A stretch of 64,000 bases of DNA from Tricharina praecox. Taxonomy: Eukaryota. The notes under the pieces are model-generated. The model had not been told where the DNA came from. It did no database searches and saw only the letters and a list, made by a program, of their open reading frames with translations. The first letter of the stretch is position 1. Every line of letters starts with the position of its first letter. Of the stretch, positions 1 to 60,458 are shown in pieces. The stretch covers positions 372,001 through 436,000 of the forward strand of contig NW_026250405.1 of assembly GCF_024521635.1 (NCBI RefSeq). The letters are read 5' to 3'. The translations under genes were made by a program, and so were the position numbers.

Positions 1-475
1 GTATAAAGTTGGGGGGAGAGAGAACGACGTACCTTGACGATTGAGCTCGGGCTTAGGTGGAAGGAAGGAGGGTGGATGGGTGGGCGGGTGGGGGGAAAGG
101 AAGGAGGTAAGGAGGCTGGAAAGGAATGATCGATGGAGGGTGGGAAGGAAGGAAGAAAAGATGAATAGCCGAGGAGGAAAGGAAGCTGTGATGGTTGTAA
201 AGAGAAGGAGAGAAGGAGGATCAGATGGCGGGTGGTTTTATAGGTGGTTTGGGGCGGCTAGTTTACATTCAGTTTCGCCGCCGCCAGACGGCTAGACCCC
301 ACCAAAACTTGCTCGTCACTTGGAACGATCGAGAAAACGTGACGCAAATCGTTGGTGACGGGGTGGAAGTGTCGCCAGGCCGCTAGAACCGCACCAAAAC
401 ATGCTCATCAGATGGATCGAGCGAGAAAATTTGACCCGCTGATCGCTGGAGACGGGTTAATCACCTCGCGCGCCG
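1..475 (-). repeat. Promoter module P2 (TATA plus CT-rich tract on the - strand) of the dispersed H-module element; the copy continues off the left edge
   Basis: Colinear with 25850-26272 (e.g. gtataaagt-G-run-agaacgacgtaccttga; ggaagctgtgatggttgtaaagagaaggaga; ctagtttacattcagtttcgccg; cacctcgcg). TATAAAA on - at 236-242. Internal direct repeat ctagaccccaccaaaacttgctcgtca / ctagaaccgcaccaaaacatgctcatca at about 292 and 383. Confidence 0.85.
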
Positions 476-544
476 AACGTGTCACTGGTTCGGCTCTTCA
501 AAGTTCAAACCGCCCAGTGCCCACTGCAGGTGCTCGCCGCGCAC

Positions 545-750
545 AAAGGCAATGTCGTTCTCTCACACAGCGGCCAGAGCAACAACACTTGACCTATGGC
601 TATGAATACCTCACATGCATGGCCAAGAGGAAAGGCTTTTCAACTTTGAAAGAAAGAAGACCTCCGCGTACCTATAACATGGGGGTTTAGTAGGCCATGT
701 TATGCGCGTATAGCTTGGGCCGGTAATAGACCAAGTTATACTCCTTTGTT
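545..750 (+). repeat. Partial, diverged copy of the hairpin (H) module; candidate structured ncRNA
   Basis: Aligns to 25366-25565 (cagcggccagagcaacaa; tttcaactttgaaag; acctccgcgta; stems tataacatgg/ccatgttatg and tatagcttgg/ccaagttata). Confidence 0.8.
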
Positions 751-2229
751 TTTGTTGTTCTCGTCCGTAACGTGAACTGTAACTTTAGCTTAAGAGGGTT
801 CGCGAAGTCTCAGTCGTCGTCGCTCGCGAAGTGATGCGCGTTCACGGCGGCGTGCGAGTGGAAGTAGGTATGTAGGTGGAACGAAGACGTCATTTAGGTT
901 GCCGACTGTATGTGAAGGTACCATCATCCCATCACTAATGGTCTCCTATGTTGGAATACATGTTCTCGGCTTTTAAAACCACCTCTTCACATAAAATCAC
1001 CCGCCGATGTCGCGAGTGAGTTACTATGAATGCGTGCTTCGTATGGCTGTTTCTTCATATGTCACTCGACTGTGGCTGCCATCGTATCGTTCATTTATTC
1101 CATAGTGGTTTAAAGCTGTGGACTCGCCAAAAATCTTCTAGACACTGCACTCATTTGTGCGTACGCAGTCACGCGACTGTGAACATTTACTCCAAGTAGA
1201 TAAGTATCTGCATTTTCTGCGGTGTAGTTGCAACAGAAGCAAGTCAAGCCAACGAGATTCGACATTGCGTAAAACAGCAATTTCATATCTATCATGATTC
1301 CATGCCACTTCCCTCAGTATTTAAGACTCATCATACACTCCAAAGTTCCATATCCACTGGTCGCTCGCTACCACGAACTTCGTGGAGAACTATCAGATGG
1401 TAGGCATCCGAGTGCATGTTGGTGAATCATATCGATTGCCATTTGCGGCGCATCATTGGGGACCTACTGAACCTAGCTACGTATAAGGACGGACGTCCCA
1501 TGATTATAAGTGATAATAAGGAGCGATTGTGAACGGGACAAGGAAGAAGGGAATGCTACGCATAGTGGGGGGATCGAGTCCTTTGGTTATTGAGTCCAAA
1601 CAGTCGTTCCGAGGACTATTGTATTATATTCTCCGGTTAGACTTGAAGCAGTTCACTCGTTGAAAATCCGAAAAAATAGTTTCGAGAGGGAAGAATAAAG
1701 CTGCTTCGCTCGTGCGCGTCAGATCCGTCTTCATCCCCAACGTGGTCGCCGCGATATCTTGAACCGCGCGACTCTTCAGCGTACGGTACATGCCACTTAC
1801 GCACATAGTGGGGTCAACACACAATGAAATCAACCCCACATTAAACGCGACCAGAAAGCCGTCTACCTAGAATATGCGCGACACGGACGCTGAGCTGACG
1901 CTTCAGTCGCTGCGGAACTCCAGAGTTTTCGTTGCCGCATTTGCGGCCGCGTTATCCGGGATAAGTGCCCCACCTAGGAATCATACCAGAAAACGTACCT
2001 AAGTCATACCTACCCCACATTGGAGTTTCTACCCCACACGCGAATACATCATACATAGTCGAAAATTCCCCACCTCAGATATGTTCTCCTACTGCTTCAT
2101 AATTGAGAACTACTTTACGACTGGAATTGAACAGAAAAGACTTGTCGGTTTTGTGGCGATGTTTGAGAAATGACGCTACGACGCGACGCGACGCGACTCG
2201 GTTACCTTCACGGTTCGGCACTCGGATTG

Positions 2230-13479: not shown

Positions 13480-14219
13480 TGGCTAAGACGATTTACTTCC
13501 TACTTAATGGTGAAAAGGGATCTTTTTTTTTCTTTTAGAACGTTTTCGTATTTCTTTTGTTGATAACTGGAGTATTTGTGGTTTATGGGAAGGTGGATTG
13601 TATGTATGTAGATTCTGCGACCTCTTTACTCGGACTCCCAAGTCCCCAATAGTTGGAGCCGCGCCCTAGAAGTAATGTGATCGTGAATTGGCACCCGTAA
13701 GCGACCATTAGATTGGTACCTGCCTCTGACCGGTAGGCTTTCACCTGCGCGCTCGCACAGTTGCTACACCCTAGGTGCAAGTGACAGAATTGATACAGGT
13801 CGCGACCCTGAAGAATCCCGCCTGGGCCGAGGAGAATACTCGCAGCCGCTCATCGGCTGCATGGGTCTTCCATGCGGCAGGTACCCTCCGCTGCTCTTCC
13901 TCTGCTTGTTCTCTCCTTCTCTTCACATCAATTACAACTTTCCTTCCTTCCATCGATATTCCTGCTTGATTTACTTGACTAATCCGTTGTTTTCGGACTC
14001 AAAACCTATGCGGTGCGCAGAGGAACCCGGCGGCCTCGACCTCAACCACAACCATGAAGTATCTACGTCCTCCTCTCTCCCTACCAGCCTCCTTGGTTTT
14101 GTTTTTCTGTTTCTTATTTTGTTTTCTTGGGTTGCTTTCAACCTTCTCTCCCTCTACTACTTGTTTTTGTTTTTGTTTTTGTTTTTCTTAATTGTTTTCC
14201 ATTGCGTTCGTTTCATTTC

Positions 14220-14640
14220 ACTTCTAGGATAACCTTATAGAGACCTCCTACTCAGCCATAGTGAAGAGGAACCGTGATATCCTTGCGATACAATGGCTCT
14301 ATCCACCCTTGCCGGCCGAGCAGGGCGAACCATGAATTGAATTACGGGTTTCTCCTCTGCTGCCGGCAGAAGTTCTTTCCCCCATCCTCCGAGCTTCGGC
14401 CGTTTGGATGGATGTTCCCGAACCGGCCTCCACCTTAGGGTGGAGGACGTTCGGATGAGCTACCAAAAAATTAAAGAAGTTGACTGGGGCTACTCCTACG
14501 AGACCCCGGTTATACGTGGAGGTTTTCTTCCTTTGCTGTGATAGCAAAGGTCTTTCCTCCTGGTCATGTGCGTCATGACGCACATGACCGAAGTCAAATG
14601 TTGCTGTTCTGGCCGCGAGAGGATGATATTGGCTTGACCG
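14220..14640 (-). repeat. Highly diverged copy of the H module; candidate structured ncRNA
   Basis: Colinear with 15895-16380 on + (aggataacctta; gaggaac; tgctgccggca.aagttctttccccc; ttcggatgag; aaagaagt; gttatacg; ggaggtt.tcttccttt..aaaggtctt.cctcctgg; tctggccgc). Stems are retained with changed sequence. Confidence 0.8.
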
Positions 14641-14742
14641 ACTGCACTCTGTACTCTAGATCCACGGTTGATTCTTGCGTCGAGAGAATGAGTCAATTGG
14701 GGAGTTTAACGAGTGGTAGATTCGAGTCCACCATTGCGACGG

Positions 14743-14959
14743 CCGTATCTACTCGTCCATGAGACACAACCGCTAAAAAATTTGAATGAGCTTACCGAGT
14801 GTCAATGGGTGGCGCGAGTGTGCCGACAGAGCGCTGTATGGTGCTTTTCACATAGATCGTACTCAAATGGCGGCGAAAGTAGTTAGTGGACTTCCATTGC
14901 CACTCGGCAAGCTCATTCATGATTTGTAGCGGTTGTGTCTTATGAACGAGTGGATACGA
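14743..14959. mobile_element. MITE of about 217 bp, same TIR family as 60005-60458
   Basis: Imperfect TIRs of about 65 bp: ccgtatctactcgtccatgagacacaaccgcta...tgaatgagcttaccgagtgtcaatgg versus ccattgccactcggcaagctcattca...tagcggttgtgtcttatgaacgagtggatacg. No coding capacity. Confidence 0.75.
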
Positions 14960-15354
14960 TTCTTAGTGCCTGCTACCGCCTTTCTTAGTATAGGTACTCG
15001 GGCGATAGTTAATGTGTGCTTCTATCAGAAATTTGAACAACGAGTCAACACGAGGGGTATGTAGGGATTTATCATTTCCTTACGGCTGTAGTTGATTGCA
15101 AAAGTGAGTCGCGGTGATGTTTATATGCGTCCACGATGAGACTTCCCGGTAGAGGAACCCATGTTAGATCCTCGCGCAGGTGTTGAGTCGGACGGGATTG
15201 ACCCCAGTATCATCCTTTCTCGTCTCGGTGTGTCTCTTTAGGTTGGCTGCTGTTGCAGCATCAAACTGCACACGCCTGCGCGTGGGAGGGCTTCGTGTGG
15301 AGAGTAGCAAATGTGCTGGCCACCATATCAAGTTTGTCGCTATTCTGTTTCAGT

Positions 15355-15692
15355 GTTGTTTAATTGGTAGATAATGTTTTGCGCGTTTGTCGCTATTCCA
15401 CGCTGTGGGAACGTGTTCATAATCGCTCACTCGGAGCTGGAATGACTACGTGTGATGTAAAACATGTGTCGACACCTTGGAATGTAGCGGTGTTTGCTAA
15501 AAGGCAAACTTTTGAGTCGACGCTAGCGTGCTAGATGTGGTTGCTTGGAATCCACTCAACTTCCACCTATAAAATCCCCCTTTCCTCCCAACTCCTCCTC
15601 ACACTCTCCTTCCTATCTCCATTCATTAACTTCTTCTCCTTTCCCGCCCGGCACTAATGGCTACTTTATGCTACTGAACTACAATTAGTTTA
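15355..15692 (+). promoter_or_regulatory. Promoter module P1 (repeat; TATAAAA at 15568-15574 followed by a CT-rich tract)
   Basis: Colinear with 40278-40615 (gttttgcgcgtttgtcgctattcc; gtcgacaccttggaatgtagcggtgtttgct; gtggttgcttggaat; ccacctataaaa; tttcctcccaactc; tgctactga). Confidence 0.8.
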
Positions 15693-15827
15693 GTCAACCT
15701 CAACTTTTTCAACCACTCAGTGCGTCCTCTCTCTCTCCTCCACCTTGTCGCAGCTTAATACTTACTTGCCTTCTTTATTAGTCAACAGAGGTCCTCCGCC
15801 GAAGATTCCCCCTTCCTTTCTTCCACT

Positions 15828-16421
15828 GTAGCCCGCGCTCATACCTTGAGGTACGCCGTTCTCTCTCCCCCCCCCCCCCCCCCCCCACTTTATACTTCCA
15901 GGATAACCTTACAGAGCTATCCTGCTTAGCCGTCGCAGCGAGGAACTGAGGGTTCCGTGCAACTGGTTTACAAAGTGGACTATTGCGAGAGACGGATCCA
16001 ACCCTCGAGGCTGAGCAGAAAAGGTCTACGGACGGGGTTTTCTCTTGTGCTGCCGGCACAAGTTCTTTCCCCCTTCCTCCGGGAGTCCAAGTCGGTCAAG
16101 ACTCGACTTGCCGACTTGCTCCCGGTGGATGGCCTATCCGAAACCGGGTGACGAACGGTTTCGGATGAGATCCAAATAACCAAAGAAGTATAACTGGTCT
16201 ACTACCGCCCCAAGTTATACGCGTATAACGTGGTTTATTATCCCCCCACGTTATACGCGGAGGTTGTCTTCCTTTCAAAGTTGAAAGGTCTTACCTCCTG
16301 GCCATGCATGAGTGGGATGCATGCGCCATTGGCCAAGTATTGTTGCTCTGGCCGCTGCGCGAGACAACGATATTTGCCCCGCTTGTGGATTACGCCGTAA
16401 AATCCATTGCGGCGAGTGATT
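15828..16421 (-). repeat. H module, full copy (near-identical inverted copy of 25325-25900); candidate structured ncRNA
   Basis: Reverse complement of 25346-25860 with about 3 substitutions seen by eye plus a G/C-run length difference; at least 8 consecutive stem-loops. Confidence 0.9.
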
Positions 16422-17477
16422 ACCCGTGAATAGAAGTCACTTTCTCTTCCCCTCCATCCTTGCATCACCGGCTGACATGTTTCACCAAGCACAGGTCAGG
16501 CCGATCTCCCGTCTACCTTCCATGTCGTGTAAAGTCTCCGACCAATACGCTCCCAGATAGGCATCGAATACGAGCTGCAAGAACCGCACCAAGGATGCAG
16601 TCTCTCAAACCACGATCATCACCACCGCAAACCCGCACACACGCACGTAGCTCTTCGCCATGCCTCCGAAGTTACTCACGGTTTTCCTCTTCGCTTTCCG
16701 CCTATACGCCGAAGATACAATTATCGCCATCCCGGCGGTCTACATCGGTACCTGGAGTTTTCACTACCGTGGAACTCTCTACGGCCGCACGCTCAGACAC
16801 CGTCGTTGCAGAACGATGAGAGAGCGTTCAGTGGAAGCAGGCAGCGGAGGATGACGTATCTGTGAGTGGAAGAGATATGCGAGAGCAAGCGAATGCGGTT
16901 ACTAGTAGGCAGCACCAGCGGTGGGGGTCCGGCGGAGTCGTATGCTCTCTTAGCCGTCTGCTTCTACTTCTGCTTTTCTCCTCCTTCTTCTTCTTCTTTT
17001 CATCATCATCATCCGATAAGACGATCATCCCTCACATCTTTTCGTTCCTCTGTGTGTGCTTTCCTCTAGATCCCGTCTCCCGCCTGGAGGAGTATTGACC
17101 AACGAACCGCTCGCAAAACCGTGACATATACGCTATCGATCTCCTATCTCATCATTCCTTACCACTCTCATATCGTACACCGGTCGCGCTCCTTCGGAAT
17201 CCTGAATTTTTATCCTGCACCGAACACGAAGCCACAAGACATCACGTGACGGCTCCATCCACTCGCAAGAGGTGATACTGCGCAAAGGTGAAGAGGATAT
17301 GGGCATGCTCCCCGCTCTGGGATGCATGGCATGGCAGTGGCAAGGAGTGCGTGGCGGAGGAGGAGGAGTGTGGGGCCATTGGGATTGATATCAGCGTGGA
17401 TATCGTATGTACTGGTCAGTCACCGGAAGAGGTGGGGATCATTTCCCCTCATCCACCGCGGACCTGCGGTGGCAACA

Positions 17478-18026
17478 TGATACTTGATACATCTCCCGCC
17501 GTCCCCGCCACTCGGCCAACGCCCCACACCCGCACGTACGAAGCAACGTTTTGCCGGCTCCTCACAGATGACCAAGACGGAACTCGAATGCCTGCAGGCC
17601 TACAATACGGTACATTCACGAACGACTACCTGGCGGAGATTAGGCGATTCGGCCGTCCGAGGGCGTGGTACGAAACATCCAACGCGGGAGTGACCATTCA
17701 TGAATTTCCTTCGCTGCTTCTCCGCTTCTGTCCCTGTAGCGGCATTATGTACGTACGTTTCTACTCTCGGCCGAGAACGAGCAGAGCTAACTGTCCCAAA
17801 GCAATCGAAGCTGAGCTCCTGTCTGACTATCGTGTCGTGTAACATCGCCAACCAATCTGCTGACGTCGGCATCGCCACACAGCTGTTCATCGAATACGAG
17901 CTGCAGAAAACTCACAATTATAACCGCACCACAATCGACACCCCACATAAGCACCCTATGTCTCGCTACGACGCCCGCTCCGCCTTTTATGCCTCCAACC
18001 TCGCTTTCCCAGGCCTTTCAGCCTGA
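17478..18026 (+). CDS. Hypothetical protein, 2 exons (start uncertain)
   Basis: ORF 17288-17842 joins ORF 17700-18026 in phase 0 through intron gtacgt(about 17753)...gctaac...aag(17801). Confidence 0.4.
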
Positions 18027-18075
18027 TTCCGCACCGTAGCCCTCTCCGGGAATCCTCATCGTCAGCTGCACGAAC

Positions 18076-20055
18076 ATGAGCGGCACCAACATCCACACGG
18101 GCGTCTGGACGAACCACTCACGGGGGCACATCTACGGCAGCACACTGACGCTCCATGACGCGCACGGCCTCGCACTGATCTCGTTCCTTGCGATCCTAAT
18201 CACACACACAGGCGCACGCTCTTTCAAGATCCTCAAATTCATCCTCCACCAGACGCGCAGCCACGAGACGCCGCGCGACGGGCTGGCGCGCCAGCAGGAG
18301 GTGATTTTGCGCAACTGCGAGACCGATATGGGCGCGCTGCCGGTGCTGGGGTGGATCGCGTTCCGATGGCGCAAGTCGGCGCCAAAGGCGTGGAGGAGGA
18401 GTATAGGCCCGTTGGGCCTGCTGGCTGCGCATATGTGTCTGTACCTCGTCGCCGGAGTGGCGGTTAGTTTTGTTGCCGATGGGAATGATCCGTTTGTTAG
18501 GGCAGAGGCCAAGGAGTGTGGCGTGTGGGCCGGGCAGGACGGGGGGATACGGAGTATGATAGCCTGGCAGAAGACGAGCTTGCTCTCGACTACGGCTGCG
18601 AGGGCGTATGTGCGGCTGTGCTACGACACCGAGGGGAGCGAAAAGGAGACGCCGAGTGAGTGCCGGGTGTTGCCCAGGAGACGGCTCAACTGGTCTGCGG
18701 TGCATAATGCCACCTGTCCGTTCGCAGACGGGATCTGTCTCGAGGGCGAGAACGCCGCGTTTACGATGGACACTGGACTGCGGAGCTCGGAGGAGCTGGG
18801 GATTAACTCGCCGAATCCAATGCAGTGGCAACGCCGCACCACGTGCGCGCCGCTAAAGACCGAGGGATATACGGAGGTGCGGACTGACGGGAAGTTTGGC
18901 GAGAATGTTACGCATTACATGTATGGTGGTGTACGCCTGCTGGGGAACTCGTCGCATTGGGTCAGTGATTGGGAGAGGGTCGGAGGATCGAAGGGATATA
19001 TACTCAATATGCAGACGTCTACCCCATGGATCCGGAATGGGAGCTTCCAGCTGGATCCAATCCCGTCGTTGAGAAGGGATGATGCCGATGTTACCTTGCT
19101 GTTTATTTCGGCCTATGGGGTTACCTACTATGAGCGTGAGCGCCCCATATCGCAGTAGTCAGCAGCCCAGTATAATACTGACCATTCCCCAGCAATCGAT
19201 GACCCAATGTTTAGCGCCCACAACTTCACCGGCACTTTCCAGATGCCGGGCTACGATGCATTTCCCACATACGCCGCTGACCATCCCTCCACAGTAATGG
19301 GCTGCACCGACCAATACCGCTTCTGCAACCCGCGCACATCCCGGTGTTCGCCCTTCGTCGATTCTCAAGACCCTGACGATCTTCTCTTCAGCATCACCGA
19401 AACGGACGGCGAAGCCGACGTCGCACTGATCATCCGCTACCACATACACACGATGAACATGTACACTAGCTCGATCGGACAAGGCGCACAGATCCTCTCG
19501 GTGGCCGACCACCTCTACGCCGGCTCGGCCATCATGCTCGCCCGCGAGCAGTGGAAAATCGAGGCCGGCCACATGTTCGATATCGGGCTGGCGACGGCCC
19601 AGATGGAAGTCGTGCGCACAGCCAAGGAATCGTACCCGCAGGACCGCGGGCCCCTCGGAAACCTCATCCAACCCCAGTGGCGCCACATCTGCAAGATGAT
19701 CGTGTTCCATGAGAGCGGGTACACTTCCGTCAACGTGTTCTGGCTGGGGTTGATCCTCCTATTCTCGCTAGTGATCACTACGCTCTCGTTCCTGGACGGC
19801 CCGGCGGGGAAGGTGATGGCGGGAAAGTTCCCACATAGGGTTTTGGCATGGAGGGCGGATGGCGCGCTACAACTTCTCAGACTCATCAATGAGAATAAGA
19901 GCATTGGCACGTGGGGACGGGGGTTTCAAGATGTGCCCATTACGGCACGCGGAGAGAAGCTGGGTGTTGTCGAGATCGTCGACGGAAGAGTTGGCATCGG
20001 GAGGGTTGCGAGTGGGATTTCGGCCGAGGAGTTTCGGTGCGGGAGTGGCGTGTAG
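18076..20055 (+). CDS. Conserved-type fungal hypothetical membrane protein, 2 exons
   Basis: 360-aa and 282-aa ORFs joined by intron gtgagc(about 19136)...actgac...cag(19192), giving YEPIDDPMF. N-terminal IHTGVWTNHSRG...G.TLTL, Cys motifs (CPF...IC; GC.DQY.FCNP) and TM helices typical of a widespread ascomycete uncharacterised family. Confidence 0.8.
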
Positions 20056-24175: not shown

Positions 24176-24597
24176 AATCAGGATGCCCGATCAAGAGCTC
24201 CAGCATGCTCATATATCTGCAAAGGCCCAAGGCCCAAAGCCCAAGGGTCGTCCAGTAGGGCTGAGGATAGAGTACCTAAAGTAGTCCGTCCGGACCGAAG
24301 ACAACTCCACATATTAGGTAGGGTAGGGCCTAGCAACGCGGTCCCGTCCAGTCCAGTCCAGTCCGGGGCGAGCACTTGCAAGTTGCCGGACTCCCTACAT
24401 AGAGCAGAACAGTCTAGTCACAAGTCCGAAATTCGCGGAGCCCGACTAGGGCCTCGAGTGATAAGCTCAGATACCGGGTGAGACCTCCGGGTTGGCGATG
24501 ATTGCATAGGTATTCGAAGTATGGGCGGAACGCTGAGTGAAGATCTGGAGGCAACAATGGAGGCGTGGCGGAGAGCTGCGTGCTTGTGTGTGCGTTT

Positions 24598-24640
24598 GTG
24601 GTGGTGGTGGTGGTGGTGGTGGTGGTGGTGGTGGTGGTGG
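24598..24640 (+). repeat. (GTG)n microsatellite
   Basis: About 14 tandem gtg units. Confidence 0.95.
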
Positions 24641-24703
24641 TTCTGAGGGACTGCACCCGTGGTGTGGGTCTTATAGCTCGTATTGAAAGCCCACCAGCGA
24701 GCG

Positions 24704-25140
24704 GCCGCCTCCAGAATAGTCACCAGGGTAAACAGAAAAGTAGGAACATTTGTCTACATAAGTATTCGAAATTGTTGCAGAATGTTGCAGTTTCCAGACG
24801 GACCAATACCTTTTAACAGCGACTTATGTTAAAACAAGTATACATGTAGGGATATGGAGTACCTACCGTACCTGCCTATATAGGCTGCGGAAACTGGCTA
24901 CATGGCCCATCTCCCTGTGAACGGAGTCACGCGCGGCCTTGGCGAATAGTTAATCCTGCCATACACGCACGCACCAGTAAAAACATAGGAACATTCGTCT
25001 ACATACTTGTTTTAACATAAGTAGTTGTTAAAAGGTATTGGTCCGTCTGAAAACTGCAACATTGTGCAACAATTTCGAATACTTATGTAGACAAATGTTC
25101 CTATTTTTCTGTTTACCCTGGTGACTATGCTGGGGGCGGC
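24704..25140. mobile_element. Foldback/MITE element with TIRs of about 135 bp
   Basis: 24704-24840 (gccgcctccagaatagtcaccagggtaaacagaaaagtaggaacatttgtctacataagtattcgaaattgttgca...ttatgttaaaacaagta) is the near-perfect inverse of 25004-25140. A partial internal copy of the TIR lies at about 24976-25005. Confidence 0.85.
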
Positions 25141-25324
25141 GCTTCTCAAAGAGTCGACACTGCCGTCCAGTGCCGCCCTATGCCGCCCAGTGCCCAGCGC
25201 CCAGGCCGGAGATCTACCTCTCCGTACATAACTAGCCGTCAGAGACCTCGACGATGTCCTCCCCTGTGCCTGTGCATCTGCAGAGGCAAGTCAGAGCGGA
25301 GAGTCGAAAACATCTTCACAGATG

Positions 25325-25900
25325 ATCACTCACGACATTGGATCGTACGGCGTAATCCACAAGCGGGGCAAATATCGTTGTCTCGCGCAGCGGCCAGAGC
25401 AACAATACTTGGCCAATGGCGCATGCATCCCACTCATGCATGGCCAGGAGGTAAGACCTTTCAACTTTGAAAGGAAGACAACCTCCGCGTATAACGTGGG
25501 GGGATAATAAACCACGTTATACGCGTATAACTTGGGGCGGTAGTAGACCAGTTATACTTCTTTGGTTATTTGGATCTCATCCGAAACCGTTCGTCACCCG
25601 GTTTCGGATAGGCCATCCACAGGGAGCAAGTCGGCAAGTCGAGTCTTGACCGACTTGGACTCCCGGAGGAAGGGGGAAAGAACTTGTGCCGGCAGCACAA
25701 GAGAAAACCCCGTCCGTAGATCTTTTCTGCTCAGCCTCGAGGGTTGGATCCGTCTCTCGCAATAGTCCACTTTGTAAACCAGTTGCACGGAACCCTCAGT
25801 TCCTCGCTGCTACGGCTAAGCAGGATAGCTCTGTAAGGTTATCCTGGAAGTATAAAGTGGGGGGGGGAGAACGACGTACCTTGAGGATTGAGCTCGAACT
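25325..25900 (+). ncRNA. H module, reference copy: candidate highly structured non-coding RNA / non-autonomous element
   Basis: Back-to-back stems at 25373-84/25397-407, 25447-52/25481-86 (inner cctttcaa/ttgaaagg), 25488-99/25512-23, 25525-35/25548-57, 25579-89/25599-609, 25622-34/25650-64, 25683-89/25695-701 and 25822-29/25838-45. Covariation in the other copies; no conserved long ORF. The repeat is certain, the RNA function is inferred. Confidence 0.55.
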
Positions 25901-26272
25901 TAGGTGAATGGAAGGTGGATGGGTGGAAAAGAAGGAGGGATGGAGGGTGGAAAGGAAGGAAGGGTGAATAGCCGATGAGGAAAGGAAGCTGTGATGGTTG
26001 TAAAGAGAAGGAGAGGAGGAGGAGCAGAGGGGGGGTGGTTTTATAAGTGTTGTGGGGTGGCTAGTTTACATTCAGTTTCGCCGTCGCCAGACCGCTAGAC
26101 CCCACCAAACTTGCTCGTCACTTAGAACCAGCGAGCACACATGACGCCAATCGTCGGAGCTAGGTGGAAGTGCCGCTAGAACCTACTAAAACGTTCTCGT
26201 CAGATTCAACGAGCGAGCAAACGATACGAGCTACATCCTCGCCGGAGATGGCTCGAAGTCACCTCGCGTGCC
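25850..26272 (-). promoter_or_regulatory. Promoter module P2 (TATAAAA on - at 26039-26045 plus CT-rich tract) facing the H module
   Basis: Colinear with 1-475; duplicated cgctaga.c..ac.aaa..tt/gctcgtca motif at about 26093 and 26174. Confidence 0.75.
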
Positions 26273-27337
26273 GGCGGCTAAACTGGTTACGGATCATGGC
26301 CAAATATGTTCAACACACCTTTTTGGAAAAAAGCGCTGACTAAAAGAGTGAGAAAGGAAAGAGGAAAAGAGAGGAAAAGAGGGAGAACAAGATGAGAAAA
26401 ACAGAGAGCGGAAGAGAGGCTATTGGTTCAATGACTTGTACCATGGCAGTCGCGGTGGATACTCTTTGATAATCCACACGACATAGTCCAAGCTTCCCCA
26501 TGTAATAATCTCTACTATCAGTCCGGAGCCACCCTCCACGGGATTGTATCATGGTTACCCTGAAACATGTGGTGAAAGCACCGGATATCACTCGCCATCT
26601 TTTCGCGAATTGACTCCGTCATTCCTGTTCGGTGACTAGTCATTCCGTCAATGACTCCAACTGTGTAGGTTGATTGCCTTTTGAAATAGGTCCCTAATGA
26701 TAACCAATATAATAGTTAAGGCAAACTTCATCTACCTATACCTATATGTATTTCCATGTGTATAAGGTATATGTTGCCAGCTCGCTGAGTGTAACAGTAT
26801 GATTTCGTTTCCATACTCCCCAACACTCATCAGAGTTCAATCGCTATCGTAGGTACCTACAACTTTAACTGGATGTTTGTTCACTATAGTACATGAACAG
26901 CTTACGCCTCTTCGCAAGAGACGATCCTTTCAGGCGCCATGGAGGAAGGCCGGCAGGCATGATGGTGGTTCTTAGCTGTAGAGCTAAGAGGCGCGAACGA
27001 AAAAGTGGGTTTGATGGTGGAGATAGCACTGTATTACCGGCTAAGGCTTAGTTTCCCTGAAATGTAAACCCCTAACCCATCACCATCTCCACCAAACCCC
27101 TCTCCTCGCTGTCACCTACGTATCCTCTCGCAATTTTCGTTCTCGTTTTGGCTCTCTTTTTCTCTCTTCTTTGTCTTGTTTGGCGGTCTGTTGTGGTGTG
27201 GCGCGACTAGCCTTTCGACCGCCGTACCAGGCAACTTTATTGATATTCCGGGCCGGACAAATTCGGTCCCGTTTGGAGCATAGCCTAGGACGGACGGGAC
27301 GATTCCCAGGCCTGTCGTCCAGTGCGTAATGCCAGTT

Positions 27338-32597: not shown

Positions 32598-35500
32598 TCA
32601 TCGGTAGCCATGCCACGAGAGCCTGCCAAGAAGTGCTTCCACGAAGTTCACTGAGTCATAGAACCCCCTATCCCAAAGGAAGAGTCGGTCTACTCCTAAG
32701 ATCACCGCCAAATAGTGCGGACAGCTCAACAACTCCAGGATCCCCTTCCTCTCAAGCAACTGACCACGGCCCGAAAAGGGAACAGGGCATTCCGGCTCTT
32801 CGAAGCGCATCCTGAGGAGACGACGACACTCATCAAAGTCCAGACGAGCCTGGGTGGGGGCACCACAGGCAAGAGGCTGAGAAGGGGGCAGAACTTTCTG
32901 GCGCTCGCGATCGATACCAGGGTTGGTGTCGGAATTGTATCTACCATTGATCGTCTTCACGAACGCCCTGTAATCAATTGCGTTCAAGTACTCCTTAGAC
33001 GGCTCTTGAGTAGGAAACATTTGACGCCCGTGTTTTGGAGGCGACAGCGAGACCACAACAATCTGCGCGATGTTACCGAAGCGCAAAACCGAGGTGTGAC
33101 GAAGTCCAGCACCGTCGGACAGCACAGGGGGCGTCGGGGGAGGCGGCCGAATCGGAAGGTTCGCATTACCGGAAATCCAAGTTGGCAGCATACGCCCTCC
33201 CGGTAACACGCCAGATGATGCCGGACCAGAAAACCACCCCTCTCTTGTGTGGAGTGCTGGGTTTGCCGTCGACAGCGATGAATAGTCAAATTGACCTGGC
33301 GGGGGCTCCCACTCCATAGCCGGCGGAAACTCCTCCCTAGGCGCAAAGGTGACCAATTGATACGGCGACGGCACGGGCACCAGAGTTTGCTGCGCAACAG
33401 TGGGCCTCATAGGACCAGGCATCTGTTGCTCAGCAACAGAGGGCCGTGAAGGACCAGGCTGTTCTTCCGCCACCACCGAGTTCTGCGATGGACCCGGATG
33501 TTGTTGCGCCACAACAGGAGGCGTCCAAGGACCAGGCATCTGTAGCTCAGTAATAGAGGGCCGTGAAGGACCAGGCTGTTGTTCCGCCACCACCGAGTTC
33601 TGCGATGGACCCGGATGTTGTTGCGCCACAACAGGAGGCGTCCACGGACCAGGCATCTGTTGCTCAGCAACAGAGGGCAGCGAAGGACCGGGCTGCTGCT
33701 GCGCCACCAGCGAGGGCTGCGACGGGCAAGGCATCTGCTTCTGGGCAAAAGAACGACTATAGGGAGGAGGCATCGGTGGTAGGGTAACAGAGGGCCGCGA
33801 AGGACCAGGCTGGAGCTGCGCCACCGCCGAGGGCTGCGAATGACTAGGTTGGAGCTGCGCCACCGCCGAGGGCTGCGAATGACTAGGTTGGAGCTGCGCT
33901 AACGCCGAGGGCTGCGAAGGGCCAGACTGGAGCTGTACCACCGCCGAGGGTTGCGATGGACCAGCAATCTGCTGCTGGGTAACAGGACGCTTATACGCAG
34001 GAGGCATCAGTGGTAGAGTAACAGAGGGCTGTGAAGGGCCAGGCTGCAGCTGTGCCACCACCGAGGGTTGCGAAGGACCAGGCTGCAGCTGCGCCACCAC
34101 CGAAGGCTGCGAAGGACCAGAAATCTGCTTTTGGGCAACAGGACGCCTATAAGCAGAGGGAATCCGTGGCAGCGTAACAGAGGGCCGCGAAGTACCAGGT
34201 AGCTGTTGTTGCAAGGGCCTGTAAGCCCGCACTGGTTGCCCCTGGGAAGTCCGCCAGTTTCCATCTACCTTCAAATTCCTGAGGATGGGATACCCGGCGA
34301 CTTTCGTGGGTCGTGCAGCCCCCACGATCTGCATAAGCTCTCCGAGCTCATCGTAAATCTTCTCGTAGGCGGCTGTTTTACCAGCGTCGTCCATGGTCAT
34401 TGCAATGCGATTGACATAGTACTTATGTCTAAAATAACTGAACTTCACGATCTGGTCTTCGAAGTCCTGGGGTCCCCTGCCTCGTTTCAGAACCTTGTTC
34501 ACCCAGTCCATGGTTTCCGTCGCAAGCCAAATGCTCCCACACGGCGTGTATTTAGACGGGTACAAAGCAGTCCCTAGGGGCTTTGTGCGATAGATTACGA
34601 AGACATTTTTGTCTTCCGCCTCCATCCCCGATTCACGCTGCTGAAGAACGGTATCTAGTTGCTGCTCGTCTCCCGTCTTCCGCACGAACGCCTTCTTCGA
34701 GGTCGGTCCATCCTCTGGCTCAGCCGAAGCTCGTCGCTTGGTTAACTCGCCCCCATGCCGTACCGGAACAGAAACCTCCTCCGACGGGATCATCGAGTCC
34801 GTTAAAGTTAACCTCTTCCGCCTCTCAATTTCCTCTCGTGTCTTCCTCAGAAGATCGGTCATGCCGAAAGGCGTTCTCGAAACCTCCTCTGACTCCTCCC
34901 TCTCCCTCTTATTCCCTTGCAGTTCAGCACCACCCTGTCCACTCGCATTGGTGAGGCCTGTGAGAGCAGACCCATAGCCTCCGTCACCACCATACTTTGA
35001 TGGGCTAGCTTGCTGGTACTCGAGTGATAATCCCCCAACGGACGACGGCTCGCCCAGACCGTTCCCTCCCGCGCCAGTCTCACCACCGTGGAAGCCAAGC
35101 TGCATGCAAGTTCCATCATCGCCGGATGTCTTGCTTGCTCCGTTGAAACCAGCGCTGATCCCAGTCTGAGGTAGGACGCTCTCACCAGCCCCAGCAGCAG
35201 AAGACACCGTCCCAAGTGGAGCAGCATACTGCAGACCCACCTCCTCTGCCGCCGCGTACCCCATGGAATAGTCAGTGGGAGTGCGAGCAATTTCTTCAAC
35301 ATTCTCCGAGCTTGCGCCCAGGTGCACACCGTCCACCCCCGGAAAGGACCACTGGGAAGCGTCATATGGTATCCCACTCTCGCCTACCGCAGTGCTAGAC
35401 ACCCTAGGGAGAGGTGCTAGTTGATCGGGCATAGCATGAAGCTTTCCTGAGAGAGAGCCATGCGTCCCATTCACACCATTGGTACTGTTGTAGACCGGAT

Positions 35501-35811
35501 TCCAATGATACCGGCTCGAAATCTCGTCTTGCTGAGCCTTCGCGAACGTTAGTGATGAGGGGCGAATTCCTCTCGTTAGAAATCGGAGTCACTTACCCAG
35601 TCATCTTCACGTTCCTGGCTTTTCGGAACGGCCGCTTCCACGAACTCATTAATTTCTTGCTCGGTCTACGAGTATGTGGTAAGCACAATCTCATCCAGGG
35701 GGGGTTAAAATGCAGGATACTCACACATGGGATACGATCGGGCTTACTCCAAGGAAAGTTCTGAGCCTCTCGGCCAGGACTTCTCGGGGATCCTTGTGAT
35801 TGTGGAAACAT
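32598..35811 (-). CDS. Large orphan protein (>1000 aa) with a Gln/Pro-rich tandem-repeat region
   Basis: 958-aa ORF extended in frame by two upstream exons (MFPQSQG...RIPC | TEQEINEF...DDW | AQQDEIS...) with gtgagt and gtaagt donors. About 20 PGPS(Q/R)PSVVAQ(L/Q)Q-type repeats at about 33400-34200. Confidence 0.75.
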
Positions 35812-39717: not shown

Positions 39718-40277
39718 GGCTGGGTAAGGTAACTCACCAGTACTAGTGTATCAATCTTGAATCTTGTCTCGCTCCAGTCGCTTCCAATTGTGGTGTTCTG
39801 GTTTTAGTCACTGGTGCCTCGCTAAAAACATTGCACCACTTTTTTGATCCGAAGTGTACTTATCTCCTCAACCCCCACCCCAACCTCGAGCAGCGTGATA
39901 GACTGGGACGCAGTGAGAGCCAGAGCGCAGGAAAAGGTACGGGCTGGACGGCCGGAGATACCGGCATATGAGGGAAGAAATGAGGCGTTAGACTAGATCA
40001 TTCTGGATGCAGGAATTGAGTGGGGAAGCGAGCTTTGATGTGGGGTTTTGAGAAAGCCTGACGCTTTTCCTTTTCATTTTGTCATCTTATTTGTATTCTT
40101 TCTTTCTGTCTTTCTTTCAATGTGCGGATGGGCGGGCGGAGAGCAATAGGGAACCCACATCGAGCTCGCGGCCAGCGGTCGGAGACGGTGGGGTGGAAGT
40201 GGACGTGTGTACAGCCATGATCTGATAGGGTCGAATGCTATGATGATGACAAAACAAAAACCTTAGAATGTTTGGTT

Positions 40278-40615
40278 TTGTTTAATCAGTAGATAATTGT
40301 TTTGCGCGTTTGTCGCTATTCCTCGCTGTGGGAATGTGTTCATTGGTGCTCACTGGTATGTCGAGTGACCTTGTTTGATGTCACACATCTGTCGACACCT
40401 TGGAATGTAGCGGTGTTTGCTGCCAAACAAACTTTGGAGTCGCGGCTAGTGCGCTAGAAGTGGTTGCTTGGAATTTCACCAAATCCACCTATAAAACCCT
40501 CCTTTCCTCCCAACTCTTCCTCCCATTCTCCTTCCTCTCCCCACTCATTGAATTCTTCTGCTTCCTTCCCGTCTGGCACTAATTAGTGATTCATGCTACT
40601 GAGTTAGATTAGTTT
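40278..40615 (+). promoter_or_regulatory. Promoter module P1, second copy (TATAAAA at 40490-40496)
   Basis: Colinear with 15355-15692. Confidence 0.8.
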
Positions 40616-52604: not shown

Positions 52605-55266
52605 TCAGAACAGCTGATTCTCCACATCCCTCACGTCCCCGGCGTTCATCCGTCTGTGCCTGTGTCCACGCAGCTCTTCCTTCTGCTTCCGCGTCAACTT
52701 CTCCCAAGCCGAGCGCTTGATCACCACCTCGCCAATCAGATTTCCCTCTTCGCGGATGACCACCCAGTCGCCTGTTCCATGTTCCGCGGAAGCAATTCGT
52801 GTTCCTCGGCCGCCTCCGCCGACTATTAGATTGCCCGGACGGTAACTATTTGCCGCGTTATCAGTGAGTGAACTTTGCGAACAGGAGTGGGGGACATACG
52901 AAGGATTCGCCTCCATCCGCTTGAGCGCGCTGATATGGATCTTGGCATTATCCGGCATATCTCTGACTTCTCCGCGAGGGAGCGGCCAGATGATCGCCTT
53001 CCAGCTGCCATCTGGCTGCAGGTCCATCCGTCGGAAGGGTAGCCACTCCATCATGTTCCACCCCAGCACACCGATGTGGTCGACGCCATGGCCAAAGCAC
53101 AAGCAATCGTGTATCTTCCCACGTGTGTACGACCGCTCCAGAAACTCTTTCGGCGGGTACCGCGGCGCCTCCACCTGCCGGTGGCGTCGTCGCATCCAGT
53201 GCCGGAGTGGGTGGTGCAGAGGATGGGCTTCTGCTTCTGCCGCGTGAAGATCCGGAGGAGGATAGTTGTCTAATTCTTTTGGAAATTCTTCGGTGGGTGA
53301 CGTGCCGGTTACTTCGATGGCGGGGGGCCGCCGAGCTCCAGCAGCACCGTTGGATGAATGCTGGGGCTGGGTTTGAACTAGCGATTCACACGATTCCGTT
53401 GGGCTATCGTCGTCCTCGTATTCCTCGATCCAACAATTATGTTCCTTCATCCGCTCCTTGTCGAATATAACACCCGCTTTTCTCGCTTCTCGCACCTATG
53501 CTTGACTATCAGCATCATTCCCAAAGCGATATCGTCGTCTGAATACTGACCATCCACACTAACGGACCGTGGCTCAGAGGCTCTTCGTCTGCTGGCAAGT
53601 CCCATCCACCACCAATATCTGCATGTGCTCCCGGGAACCACACTTCCTCGACGTCCTGGCCGAGTTCTTCGTCGTCGTCCGAATCGCTCTCTTGGTCCAA
53701 GATGAGATTGAAAGACGTCATACTTTCCGCCGGACTCTCGCCTGCAAACATGGCGTTGGATCCAGTCTGTAGTTGCTGTCCGTATATCGGGTGTCCATTC
53801 GCATTGCCGTTTCTCGGACCGCCGTTCGGGGACTGAGCCCTGTTGACAGAGCTCGATGACCTGGCAGTGAACTTGGCCTTCTTCTTCTTATTCTTCTTTT
53901 TGCCTTTCTTCTCTTCCTTCCAGCTCCGCTGTCGTGCTATCGAATCAAGGTCTACCTTGTTGACGAGGTCCTGGCGGAACTTGGCTCTGCGCTCGTCAAT
54001 GCCGACTGCATGTCGAATCACTCGGGCGGTGCCTGTCAAGCATCGTCAGCACAATTCCAGTTTTGGTGAAAGCATGAAGAGCGGGCTTACTCCTGGCAGT
54101 GTACGGAAACCCAGAGGAGCGCTTCAACCATGCGTGCTCGAACCGGGGAACCGAGTTTACGGTGTCGAACAGCCCCAAGAATCGTACTCGACGGGCTGGC
54201 CGAGCAAAAGTTTCGCGGAATGCACGCATGTAACTACATGAAGGATTAGCGTCAGTAGGTTTCTCGCTATCTGCGCTCATATCCACTTACTCGTAAAGTG
54301 CCTTATGCTTGGAGTTATCATTCCGTTGTTTCCAGTTCGAAAACGTCTTCCATGCGAATAGGACCTACGGGGACTTGTCTCAACATTCCGCCCACCAACT
54401 CGGATAGGATAGTCCAACCATCTCTTCATTCCCTGGCGCCACAATTCCCACGTGATCAATCATCTCGGCCAAAAATCTCGCAGTGTATGCGCCCCGCGAG
54501 AATCCGAACATATAGATGTCGTCGCCGGGAGAATAGAACCGCATCAAAAACTTGTAACCTCCAATGACATGCTGGTCAAACGATGTTCTGTAACGAAAAC
54601 GCGCTCGTCAGCACCCATGTTCAGCTACTCCCCCACCCCGCAGGTCGCGAGTAATAAAGTACCCAACAGCGGCGTCCATGGCCTTATTAACCCACGACTT
54701 GAAACGCGCGCCCACATGCACACGCGACAACCCTCCATTGGTGATGTAAGTTCCTATTCCCGCTGTTGAGGTTGTCAGCGCCAATACTCCGGAAGGGTTG
54801 GACGAGACTAGTCTCGGCGTCTAGTACGCGCTCCGCGAGTACTCCGGAATGGAACGTACGTTGATAATAATGGACTAGACGCCGACGCCCGCACTGTTAG
54901 CCACCACCTCCTGAACAGAGAGATCGCGAAGGCAAGGTTGGAGGGAATTGAATCGTTACATTGATTCCCTTCGCTGCGGTCCAACATGCGGAAAACCTTC
55001 AGGATGTTGGTGTCGCCAGAGTTTCCCTTGAACTTATTTCCCGTCCCGTCGAAGCAAAGAATCAACTTCTTGCGTGGCTGGTCCACTTGGATGTTGCTAA
55101 TCATATTGGCAGTCTGGCTTCCCTGACGGGGCGCAACATTGGGACGTGCATTCCGTTGTTGTGGTGCCGGTGATGGAGAGAGCGAGTAGGTCAGGCGAGC
55201 ACCCGGCGGAATTTGAATCTGCGGTGAAGCCGGCGGAGGCGGGGTAGCGTTGGGGTTTCCCTCCAT
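52605..55266 (-). CDS. DUF2235 / Tle1-like alpha/beta hydrolase domain protein, multi-exon
   Basis: [38 protein letters not shown] (GxSxG nucleophile), [38 protein letters not shown]. Confidence 0.93.
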
Positions 55267-58200
55267 TATAAGACGTAGAGGTATCGAACAAGATATGTCG
55301 AGAGCGTTGGCTGCCTAGTACTGGCTGAAGATGGATGTGAGAAGTCTCGTCCAGTCGAGGCTTCGAGATGTGTGAGGTGTGAAGCGTGATGAGGAGAGCG
55401 ACTGACGAATGGAAGAGACAAGAGGAACCGGGGGAATCTGAGCATATGAGGGATGGGCTTTTATCAACTATCGGAAAGAAGGCGAGAAGGAGATGAGAAA
55501 GTTTTCGTTCCGCCGGCGCAACGCCAGATTGAGGGGGTAACTACGTGAGACGAACGAACGGCACAAGGGGAATGCCGCGGACCATGATGATGCAGAAGAC
55601 TCTTAGTGCTGGGTCGCACGCAGTCTCTCGAGCTCCTACGCGGCTGACTGGTTGTGGCCGACCATTTTTTCCGTGTATACCCATTCCCCAACCGGCCTAC
55701 TATGTCTTGGAGATGTCTTAAAGGTCTCCATGGTGGGTGACGTTTAGGTTCTGCAGCAGCAACCACTGGTGACTGGCACAGGAACGGGAGGCTAAAGATC
55801 GCCGGAGCAGCAAGGCACTACTGCATATTTCAGCTCGAGGGGTGTCATTGCTTCATCGCAAAGTCCGATTGATAGCAAGCCCCCAGCCGAAACATCGCGA
55901 ATCGAGCTCCGCGCTTGTCCATGAGTGCTGATATATTGCACAACCACACCTCCTTCTGGATGCGGGTTGATTTTCGGCGAGGTCTCTGGTCTTGGGAAAC
56001 GCGGGATCAGTGTCGGACTGGGGATGGGTGAGCGTGGAGTGTCGAGTGTCGAGTGTGAATAGTGATATCGATATCAATTGGTGGAGTGGGGCCGTATGCA
56101 GAGTGCAAGCGCAATACCACTCGGCTCTAGTGGGGGAGGTGGTTCTCACGCTTACCGTTTCCGTTTCGTCCTTGGCGTCCGCTTGAAGACGCCGCACCCG
56201 ATGATTCGCCAATAGTTCTCGCGAATCTCCTGCACACATCCGAACCTAATCGAATTCTGCGTAACATCTCCATGGCCCCGAGACCAGTCCTCCAGCCCGC
56301 GGCGATCCACAACCGATCAGGGCAACTCCTCCAAAGATCGCGCCCCCACTTTGGCAGTAAATCCGGCGTAGGCAAAGATGCTAGGTATGTAGGGACCTCG
56401 CTTCCGAGTGTCCTCGCCGCTATGCCTACTCACCTAGTACTTACTTGGTTAACTGCTACATAGGTAACTACTCGGGTGGTTGATATCTAACCATCATATG
56501 CCTATCTGCCGGCAGAATGCTGTCCCGCCCAACCGCTCTCATCGGAACTCCTTCAGGTCGTGGGCTCTGTCGGTCGCTGTTTGCCGGTTTCTTCATCGCG
56601 CGGCTGCACATGGACCAACGCTTGCGCAGGTTGACGATGCCGTGCAAGAGGGTGGAAGCTGGGCCTGAGACATCTCCGACTCAGAACACGAGCTTGCCGT
56701 ATTACCGGCCTGTGGGGGTTACATGATGGTTATCCACCAGCGCGGTTTGCTTGATCCAGATTAGAAGGTCCAACGGCGACGGACAGCATTGATATTCGTC
56801 TGAGGGAGATCTTCGGTCCTGGCCAAACCGGTTTGGGGATGCGACACAAACGCCGGAGGTATGCACTCAAGGCATATTACCTATCCTGCTCGCGGATTCC
56901 GCATCATCGGCCGGATACAAAAATCTTTTCCGGCCTGCATGCCGTAGGTACGTACACCAACGCAATGTCCAATCATCATCAATCCTGCCCTCAGTGGATT
57001 ACACATGCCTACTCAATCCTGGGGCACACCTTTCTAATACATGCGGCATGCACATTGCCATCTCTTTGCCAATCGCTCTGCCCCATGCGCAATCAAAGTT
57101 CTTTCTTCCCTCGACGATGAATGTCCACTCGCTGCTTAAGGTTTGCTGCGCCTCCACTCCCGCTCATTAGATGGATGTGTACGGTGTACCTATCATGGCC
57201 ACGGATGGACGGATGGACGGATGGACGGCGGATGGTACATGCCCTTCCATGCCGCACGTGTTTCCGGTGACGTATAGTTCTATTCTCCATGATCTTTCCC
57301 GTGCCACGTTTAACCTCATTTTGAGGTCACGATGCTTCAAACCTGTCATAAATGCCATATCGTGTCTTACGGCAGTGCTGGTACAGGGCTATGCATGGAG
57401 CTCAGGTAGAGTGAAGTCAAACTGTCAAAGACACGAGCAAAGCACCGTATTCTCCAGAGCTTTCCTCTAAAAGCAACTGGTTCCCGAGATGTCCTTCCTA
57501 CGGTGCCTATCCTACTCACGCTCATCAGGGCCCTACCGTCACCACCAGTGGCAGTGCATATGCGCGAGGGCATCCGCTCTTTTCCCTGCGCAGCTTACAT
57601 TGGGCTTGGTGAATTCTTTCCGACTCGGGGAAGGAAAGCCCACCGACTGCTGACACCGATGTGTGGGCAAGACAATCTCTTGGCAAGATTTCCAACGCCG
57701 TCTTCAAAAGCTCACGCCCGTACCACTCGATAGATAAACGCATGGATGATTGGGTAGCTACTGACCTCCTACCCTACGGTACCCTTGTGCGGCCCATCCC
57801 GTTTTTTAGGCTCCCAGCTCCGCTCACAAAAAGCTTGAAGATAAACCTGATCCAGCCACCCGGTGGCGATTGCTCTACCCACAGATTTGGGGGTTTCGAG
57901 ATTTATCTGGATCCTGGGAGTCGGATGGACCCCTTGCATGGCGAACCGAACCGTGAGATGTTCATAGTACACATATGTAGCACATTTCCCGTCACCCACG
58001 CACTCTAGGTTCATGAGCATGAGGTCAATTGATGGTTGTCGTACATAGAGACAGACGAACTACTCGTGGTTTCGCATTCGGTCATTGACGTCATCGTCTG
58101 TTCTGCTCTTTGCTGTTACGTGAGTGTGTATATACCAGTATCTACGTGGTTTCTGATGACCTCGACACGGAAAGCCCGTGTGTACTCGACACTGCCCGCA

Positions 58201-59662: not shown

Positions 59663-60004
59663 GAGATACGGACGGAGGTGCTTACCTATTGTACATACGT
59701 CTTTTTGCGGGAGTTGTGGATTAACTGATATTGTTTTTTGCTTTGCACGTTTGTGCGGAAACTATGATGTAACCGTTTACTCGTCCATCTATACCTAACT
59801 CAATAAGAGATGGGCACGCACGGCCCGGAATATACTGGCTCCAAGGTCTATTGTGCCCGGGGCTGCTTTCGGAGAGTCTTCGCAGGATTAAGATTCCTTC
59901 ATCACCAAGCCGGATACCGGTACCCTTTGTATCGTGAGTTTCCATGAAGCTTGCTTCTCACGGCGGCGGCAACGGTAACGGCAGCAACCCATCCTTCTCA
60001 CGTA

Positions 60005-60458
60005 CCGTATCTACTCGATCATTGTAACCGGCGCGCTAAGAGGTCAGAATAAACTTACCGAGTAGCAATGAAAAGGGTGCAAAGTGGCAATATCAGTTTG
60101 CCACTGCCAGAGCTCTCGCTCAAAACTCTCTCTTAGTATCTACAGATGTCGAGCGGGAAAAATGAATTGATACAGGTGGGAAGGGATGGGCGATTCCATA
60201 GTGTAATACTACACGTCTCCAGAGTTTAGCAGGCCCAGAAACAGCAGTTTTGTTGTTTCCGAGTGGATGCACAAAGCATCACCCGTGCCAAGACCGTGGC
60301 CAAAGTTCCTGATTTCTAACAAAACAGCTGCTTTTTCAGCACTGAAGTTGCGAAAACATTTGCCACAAAGACCCTTCCGTCCACCGAATTTTCATTGCCA
60401 CTCGGCAAGTTTATTCTGACCTCTTAGCGCGCCGGTTACAATGATCGAGTAGATACAG
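60005..60458. mobile_element. MITE of 454 bp with TA target-site duplication (Tc1/mariner-pogo type)
   Basis: TA|ccgtatctactcgatcattgtaaccggcgcgctaagaggtcagaataaactt.ccgagt.gcaatgaaa ... inverse copy at about 60390-60458|TA. TIRs of about 68 bp; no transposase. Confidence 0.88.

Follow-up and report, generated by a model that had tools for sequence, protein, structure and literature searches.

The window analysed here, a stretch of 64,000 nucleotides, carries a non-coding, hairpin-dense module (H) followed by a spacer (X). The earlier note on this DNA had described H as a multi-copy family and overlooked that H belongs to a larger H-X unit. The best explanation is a lineage-specific unit of about 1 kb, composed of H (about 550 bp) and a fast-evolving X (about 450-500 bp). 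Comparison of the copies shows that the unit exists in many diverged forms, with an H core that is near-identical between copies while both flanks decay. We give nearly even credence to the reading that H-X is an unclassified repeat unit whose core is homogenised by gene conversion and whose palindromes matter in the single-stranded state.

The window comes from the nuclear genome of a filamentous ascomycete. Among the Pfam domains found in it are a fungal rhodopsin domain, a tyrosinase, a PA/M28 peptidase, PrpF and Gtr1/RagA. The best named relatives of the PrpF protein occur in Sphaerosporella (73%) and Trichophaea (60%). The gene that starts at 18076, referred to below as the host gene, is a conserved ascomycete gene of unknown function without a Pfam domain; its relatives are about 660 aa long, and the best named ones occur in Wilcoxina (62%), Trichophaea (59%) and Pyronema domesticum (56%). 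Both sets of relatives point to the Pyronemataceae. A mitochondrial or rDNA origin of H was considered and rejected, since the three H pieces listed in a soil metagenome run (X1) have an ordinary, single-copy-like depth of 9-16, the genes are ordinary nuclear genes and the GC content is about 52%. The window also holds a 996-aa open frame without a Pfam match (32601-35588, minus strand); diverged tandem repeats lie within it across 33387-34199, where the sequence matches itself at offsets of 117 and 234 nt. A split open frame at 53518-55314 (minus strand) carries a T6SS_Tle1-like (DUF2235-type) hydrolase domain and is probably an ordinary intron-containing fungal gene. Directly downstream of the M28 peptidase gene lies a perfect (GTG)14.7 microsatellite (24598-24641), where the contigs of several runs break.

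Copies of H were located by searching the window against itself with BLASTN and nhmmer. Copy A, the reference, lies on the plus strand (self-match 25315-25866). Its body occupies 25315..25858 and ends in a run of 9 G at the junction with X (25859..25867). The module had been given a start at 25325; the module itself is real, but the core common to the family begins later, near 25342-25368, and extends to about 25858. Within copy A a 36-nt unit is tandemly duplicated (25486..25557, plus strand), forming two sister hairpins, and the same duplication is present in copy B at 16188-16259. Copy B is on the minus strand (self-match 16430-15879, 97.8% to A over 553 nt), with its body at 15887..16430 and a G run of 20 nt at 15867..15886, which reads as C on the plus strand. 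Copy C (548-771, plus strand, 80%) is truncated to H positions 54-273 and stands head to tail after an X. Copy D (minus strand) is old and diverged. Its self-match covers 14633-14216 (E 2e-31; about 80% in aligned columns, 61% counting gaps) and its full extent is 14192..14698; it has replacement hairpins of its own and is without one 36-nt hairpin unit. In place of the G run it is followed by an A-rich, (CAAAAA)n-like tail (14140..14215, minus strand). The description of the module as free of poly(A) is therefore limited to A and B.

Two lesser pieces complete the set. The window start cuts off a fifth copy, leaving its last 16 nt (1..16, plus strand) with a G run of 6 nt at 11-16, and a relic of about 100 nt was found with the four-copy profile at 46086-45988 (minus strand, E 1.4e-8). 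The main four copies span 25.3 kb, which agrees with the claim of four copies in 26 kb at different levels of divergence. All six pieces fall within 46 kb, suggesting local duplication rather than random insertion. Copies B and D share an orientation and are 1.2 kb apart. Every copy in the window is intergenic or upstream of genes. In A and B each of the six frames contains at least four stops, so that the module has no coding capacity, as had been stated. A further dispersed repeat (15353-15691 and 40275-40615, 81% identity over about 340 bp) has one copy, 15353-15691, between H copies B and D.

The hairpin content of H is well above that of the rest of the window. The minimum free energy of copy A is -222.6 kcal/mol, compared with -175.1±7 for 100 dinucleotide shuffles (z -6.8), and none of the shuffles was as good. 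The minus strand of A folds equally well (z -7.5). The diverged copies C and D, for which z was calculated against mononucleotide shuffles, also give similar values on both strands, and D still folds at a z of about -6 despite about 20% divergence in aligned columns and many gaps. A scan for perfect stems of at least 8 bp with loops of 3-20 found 33 hairpins in 64 kb, of which 12 are inside H copies: four each in A and B, three in D and one in C. On average the window has 0.29 perfect hairpins per 550 nt, and the maximum of 4 is reached at A and B; the density in H is about 12-fold that average. Along copy A some 12 consecutive local stem-loops can be made out, where at least 8 had been claimed. 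The characterization of H as a multi-copy, non-coding, hairpin-dense family was thus upheld by the self-search, the stops in all frames and the hairpin scan.

Two other candidates were examined and rejected. Single H hairpins do not behave as independent mini-elements, since none occurs outside the H copies in the window. A hidden copy upstream of the host gene, at 17100-17640, has no similarity to H and a fold z of +0.5; only the end piece of H (its last 35-75 nt or so) is present near there, at 17636-17700.

The hairpins of H were kept, or rebuilt, as the copies diverged. When the local structure of A was scored on the four-copy alignment, 87.8% of cells pair. Fourteen pairs have changed on both sides and still match, compared with 5.1±1.8 in 500 shuffles (0 of 500 as high) and 1-5 in slid controls. 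For example, CCTTTCAA/TTGAAAGG has become CCTTTGCT/AGCAAAGG, and the CTTGTGC/GCACAAG stem has undergone a G-C to C-G swap. In copy D, a different 12-bp perfect hairpin replaces the GCATGCAT hairpin. Since the alignment contains no more than three independent sequences and the structure itself comes from A, which is one of the three, these data support maintained palindromes and not selection on an RNA of a given strand.

An alternative, which we regard as unlikely, is a family of non-coding RNA genes that duplicates in tandem and is read by pol II from the minus strand, with H as the gene body or as a long structured leader or intron. X would then supply the promoter, and selection on the RNA would keep H alike as the spacers drift. 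The compensatory changes are in favor of such a family, but the behavior of the two strands and of the loops is not. The two strands fold equally, and there is no clear strand bias in G-T versus A-C mismatches (8 vs 10 in C, 21 vs 11 in D). Loops and stems are equally well conserved between A and B and equally variable in the diverged copies: for C the substitution rate is 0.238 in stem columns vs 0.287 in unpaired ones, and for D the two rates are 0.382 vs 0.356. The suggestion that RNA is the active form of H was not borne out by these comparisons. Because stems change no slower than loops, the palindromes could be regenerated by template-switch mutation without selection.

The relationship between copies A and B provides the clearest view of how H evolves. 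These copies are the arms of an old inverted duplication (15679-16765 and 24457-26075), a point missing from the earlier note. The duplication includes a module, Y, which originates from the promoter region and first exon of the host gene (17636-18140, plus strand; gene start at 18076). Beside copy B, Y is a decayed duplicate of this promoter region and first exon (16431..16860, plus strand); beside copy A it is a decayed partial duplicate in which the start codon has changed from ATG to ACG (24457-24704, minus strand). On the Y side, the flanks of A and B are about 70-75% identical, and the first 36 nt of H itself match at 24 of 34 positions. In the H core (25342-25866), 520 of 525 positions are identical, and the edges of this near-identical segment are sharp. 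The states at 25507, 25792 and 25818 are common to A and B and absent from most other copies in X1. A core so much better preserved than its flanks is most simply explained by gene conversion restricted to the core or by very strong selection at each position. A recent insertion does not account for the near-identity of A and B, which reflects homogenisation. A conserved core with diverged flanks is also a signature of a functional RNA gene family, and to that extent it favors the non-coding RNA family; however, 99% identity in the core against 70-75% in the flanks with a sharp edge between them fits conversion better than selection.

Segmental duplication clearly produced A, B and the host-gene fragments, and all copies cluster within 46 kb. 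These observations would be consistent with local duplication alone, with incidental hairpins and no family-level biology. We consider this extremely improbable, because the hairpin density is about 12 times the window mean, the diverged copy D keeps its z of about -6, and H occurs elsewhere without the flanks of the window, as described below. A homogenised repeat unit remains the preferred reading.

The arm of copy A also contains a foldback, MITE-like palindrome (24704-24841 and 25003-25140) with two 138-bp arms of 95% identity that enclose a loop of some 160 bp. The B arm lacks this palindrome, which places its insertion after the duplication. Other palindromes in the window are a self-inverted repeat at 14744-14958 (70%) and a 72-bp inverted pair at 60003-60074 and 60389-60460 (96%). 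The palindromes at 14744-14958 and near 60 kb are weakly alike (E about 0.005), which suggests a family of foldback elements.

X follows H wherever the 3' end of H is seen: at A, at the window start, at B and, weakly, at D. The X of copy A (25868..26320, plus strand) contains a conserved GAGAACGRCGTACC block, a GA-rich tract and two sub-repeats of about 85 nt, each with a small hairpin (26085-26260). The X of copy B (15560..15866, minus strand) is diverged, at 74.6% to that of A in aligned columns. The X after the cut-off fifth copy (17..515, plus strand) is 85.5% to that of A in aligned columns and 74% counting gaps. A weak X-like relic lies downstream of copy D (13889..13955, minus strand, E 0.006). 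The order at the window start is H, X and truncated H, and at two loci H-X units stand head to tail. In one contig of X1, position 25824 is connected back to 25375. A search for the end of X upstream of H in A, B and D found nothing above shuffles, with a borderline match in B (40, against a null maximum of 37). Variants of X in metagenome contigs return from about 26156-26159 to 26085 or skip 141 nt (26033 to 26175).

On the strand opposite to H, all three well-preserved X sequences have the same order of elements: TATAAAA, a CT-rich tract, AAG/GTACGY, a run of C and the reverse complement of H. The TATAAAA motif is at 26039-26045 (minus strand) in the X of A, 15568-15574 (plus strand) in that of B and 236-242 (minus strand) in that at the window start. 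The putative donor motifs, as read from the sequence, are AAG/GTACGT at A (25874..25879, minus strand), just before the poly-C and the reverse complement of H, with counterparts at B (15851-15856, plus strand) and at the window start (32-27, minus strand). The C run that separates the motif from H is 9, 20 or 6 nt long, respectively. Taken together, these elements resemble a fungal core promoter with a splice donor behind it. This would support the non-coding RNA family, as would the head-to-tail units and the local clustering, which are typical of RNA gene families. In a bolder form, the reverse complement of H would be an undescribed RNA of about 550 nt with about 12 hairpins, transcribed from the TATA promoter in X. 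It might be a stable non-coding RNA or a giant intron starting with GTACGY, and units of promoter plus RNA would spread and be kept uniform by gene conversion. We consider this form unlikely.

The donor-like motif also raises the idea that H, read in reverse complement, belongs to the introner-like elements, spliceosomal introns that are multi-copy and strongly folded, and that it sits in 5' leaders. The minus-strand repeat begins at a conserved GTACGY donor at three of three H-X junctions, and in four copies it ends near a TGAT-like branch motif followed 9-15 nt later by AG. Fungal introner-like elements are likewise multi-copy and stably folded, with compensatory mutations, and the mechanism of their multiplication is described as unknown (PMC3609843). 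However, the branch- and acceptor-like motifs are weak, with AAG or GAG as the acceptor-like site in three of four copies. Copy D is without the donor, and in a run whose RNA status is a guess, one contig reads through the donor-like site unspliced. The elements known from Dothideomycetes are spliceosomal introns in genes with about twice the normal intron length (PMC3609843), but H is about 570 nt long and all copies lie between or upstream of genes. H was rejected as an introner-like element by position and length, and the idea as a whole is very unlikely.

H is abundant beyond the window, which supports its reading as a multi-copy family. Contigs of the soil metagenome run X1 were aligned to 24400-26500 at a likeness threshold of 85%. 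The summed contig depth on H is 54-301 with a mean of 179 (8 bins, 25323-25890), whereas the flanks have a mean of 7.3 in 13 bins to the left and values of 4-26 in 8 of 9 bins to the right. The summed depth of H is thus about 25 times that of its flanks, although it may pool several organisms and is not a copy number. Even so, the contrast is sharp at the borders of H and shows that the family extends far beyond the six pieces of the window. The run covers all of 24400-26500, and the high depth on H stems from many short contigs; the 158 contigs fall into identity classes of >=99, 95-99, 90-95 and <90% as 23, 39, 64 and 32. In X2, a 3.6-Mb run of 'organism A' from another sample, 9 contigs match H and none matches the flanks. 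Duplication alone is largely refuted by these contigs, which carry H without its flanks in many identity classes. Pattern scans with conserved H motifs gave 0 matches in metagenome contigs for two motifs, and 0 in genome contigs and 0 in viral contigs for one motif.

Depth on X in X1 is at most 2-4 times that of the flanks, which at the 85% threshold is as expected if X diverges faster than H. Among the sequencing runs recorded as RNA, none contains H. In X8, H-containing contigs have a depth of 3.5-14. This would count for the non-coding RNA family; however, it is tiny beside the 2422 of the neighbouring gene, the RNA status of X8, like that of X5, is a guess, and with contigs alone the low depth of H says nothing firm on expression.

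The much higher summed depth of H than of X could also reflect a larger autonomous transposon located elsewhere, of which H would be a fragment (an LTR, a UTR or a terminal region) and the pieces in the window solo or truncated remains. The order H, X, H at the window start resembles an LTR, an internal region and a second LTR, and the comparison covered the window, Rfam and Pfam, with Repbase, Dfam and the rest of the genome outside it. The structure of H does not agree with this origin. TG...CA ends with a target site duplication (TSD) are missing, as is any CA end; behind H comes a G run that differs in length (6, 9 or 20 nt) and not a TGG-type primer-binding site, and no purine tract precedes the second H (481-548). 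Neither terminal inverted repeats (TIRs) nor subterminal ones were found. Pfam was used to scan 85 ORF translations, of which 20 lie between or around copies B and A (down to 92 aa) and the other 65 are from the 87 ORFs of at least 130 aa in the window. No transposase or reverse transcriptase domain, and no autonomous partner of H, was detected among them. We regard the transposon fragment as quite unlikely and retain the unclassified repeat unit as the preferred reading.

H fails the testable hallmarks of SINEs, MITEs, Helitrons and HINEs, LTR elements (including solo LTRs and TRIM/LARD), introner-like elements and retrozymes. At the gathering score, Rfam gave 0 matches in the whole window. 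A relaxed search (E<=1) of both strands of 24500-26800 returned two hits, sR52 (E 0.09) and mir-490 (E 0.66), neither of which comes near its gathering score. The families covered include hammerhead, twister, HDV, VS, group I and II introns, SRP, RNase P/MRP and snRNA, and ARAGORN found 0 tRNA genes in the window. These results agree with the earlier note, in which H was not recognised as a tRNA, 5S, snRNA, SRP, RNase P/MRP or group I intron, and the missing Rfam relative counts against the non-coding RNA family. The retrozyme-like option in the earlier note is not supported, since no hammerhead or other ribozyme family was matched in 24500-26800 or in the whole window. Its SINE-like option fares no better: Rfam and ARAGORN detected no pol III head derived from tRNA, 5S or 7SL, and H contains T4 runs on either strand (25722-25725 on the plus strand and the complement of 25704-25707 on the minus strand).

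The ends of H give a similar result. Compared end to end, H gives an inverted match of at best 10 nt, one mismatch included, consistent with the stated absence of TIRs, and the ends of the H-X unit score below the shuffle mean for inverted repeats, so that no MITE or cut-and-paste feature is seen. The only repeat flanking A and B is a purine-rich partial direct repeat, which may be chance. Helitrons have 5' TC and 3' CTRR ends, carry a hairpin about 11 nt before the 3' end and insert between A and T. A TCT-type motif is found near the H start in all four copies, but these have no CTRR end in either orientation and the preceding base is inconsistent. The subterminal inverted repeats expected of HINE/DINE-1 elements were not found above shuffles at the H-X ends. 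No contig from the sequencing runs is joined across H as an empty site would be. The search for a TSD, TIRs, a tail rule, an empty site and an autonomous partner was negative throughout, so mobility of H is a proposal only. A literature search found no description of such a nuclear hairpin-array element, and the Pyronema genome paper makes no mention of hairpins, SINEs or MITEs. Because Repbase and Dfam were outside the comparison, 'undescribed' is a provisional term for H.

The homogenised repeat could work as follows. H would be a selfish repeat with no protein of its own, and its dense palindromes would be needed in a single-stranded intermediate, either RNA or DNA. Copies would be homogenised by ectopic or intrachromosomal gene conversion, possibly begun by breaks at the palindromes. 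New copies would come from H-X units, complete or incomplete, that are duplicated or inserted, and movement might be by retroposition, by rolling circle or through recombination alone.

If H is merely a selfish repeat, it would be a nuclear fungal repeat defined by an ordered hairpin array and not by terminal repeats or a coding partner. If the reading as an RNA of about 550 nt is true, it would be a nuclear fungal counterpart of structure-dependent selfish RNAs, and either an RNA or an intron would bear on the multiplication of structured elements and on fungal intron gain. The A/B pair is a clear local case of a repeat core that is homogenised while the co-duplicated host sequence decays, and is useful for work on gene conversion and on the fragility of palindromes in fungi that lack strong repeat-induced mutation. 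Since H lies in promoter regions and breaks assemblies, it belongs in repeat libraries for Pezizomycete genomes.

H has features in common with several known systems. Like introner-like elements, it is multi-copy and non-coding, with stable predicted folds, compensatory changes and GTACGY at one end; unlike them (PMC3609843), it is about 550-570 nt long, is found between genes in all copies examined, has a weak acceptor and is linked to a spacer. HINE/DINE-1 elements are defined by subterminal inverted repeats of 12-15 bp, a 3' palindrome and a TT target with T strings (PMC4067079). H is similar to them in being non-coding, in its high copy number, palindromes and internal simple-sequence or tandem-repeat section, in its tendency to form arrays and in having no clear TSD (PMC4067079). 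However, the subterminal repeats, the single 3' palindrome and the TT target were not found in H, which has about 12 hairpins along its whole length. The hairpin and GC-cluster repeats of fungal mitochondria and the bacterial REP/REPIN repeats are also selfish repeats whose hairpin is maintained on both strands through compensatory change. They are single hairpins of 30-150 nt in organelles or bacteria, whereas H is nuclear and strings together about 12 different hairpins in a fixed array.

SINEs and other LINE-dependent retroposons are short and non-coding, have many copies and carry a simple tail at one end. H is also short, with many copies and a variable simple tail (a G run, or A-rich in D), and possibly with more 3' than 5' representation; unlike SINEs, it is without a tRNA, 5S or 7SL head, has T4 runs on both strands and a poly-G tail when young, and shows no TSD. 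Dispersed RNA gene families such as fungal 5S rRNA genes evolve in concert through gene conversion. In contrast to those genes, the RNA product, strand and promoter use of H are hypothetical; in common with them, it combines a conserved core and diverged flanks with probable conversion between dispersed copies.
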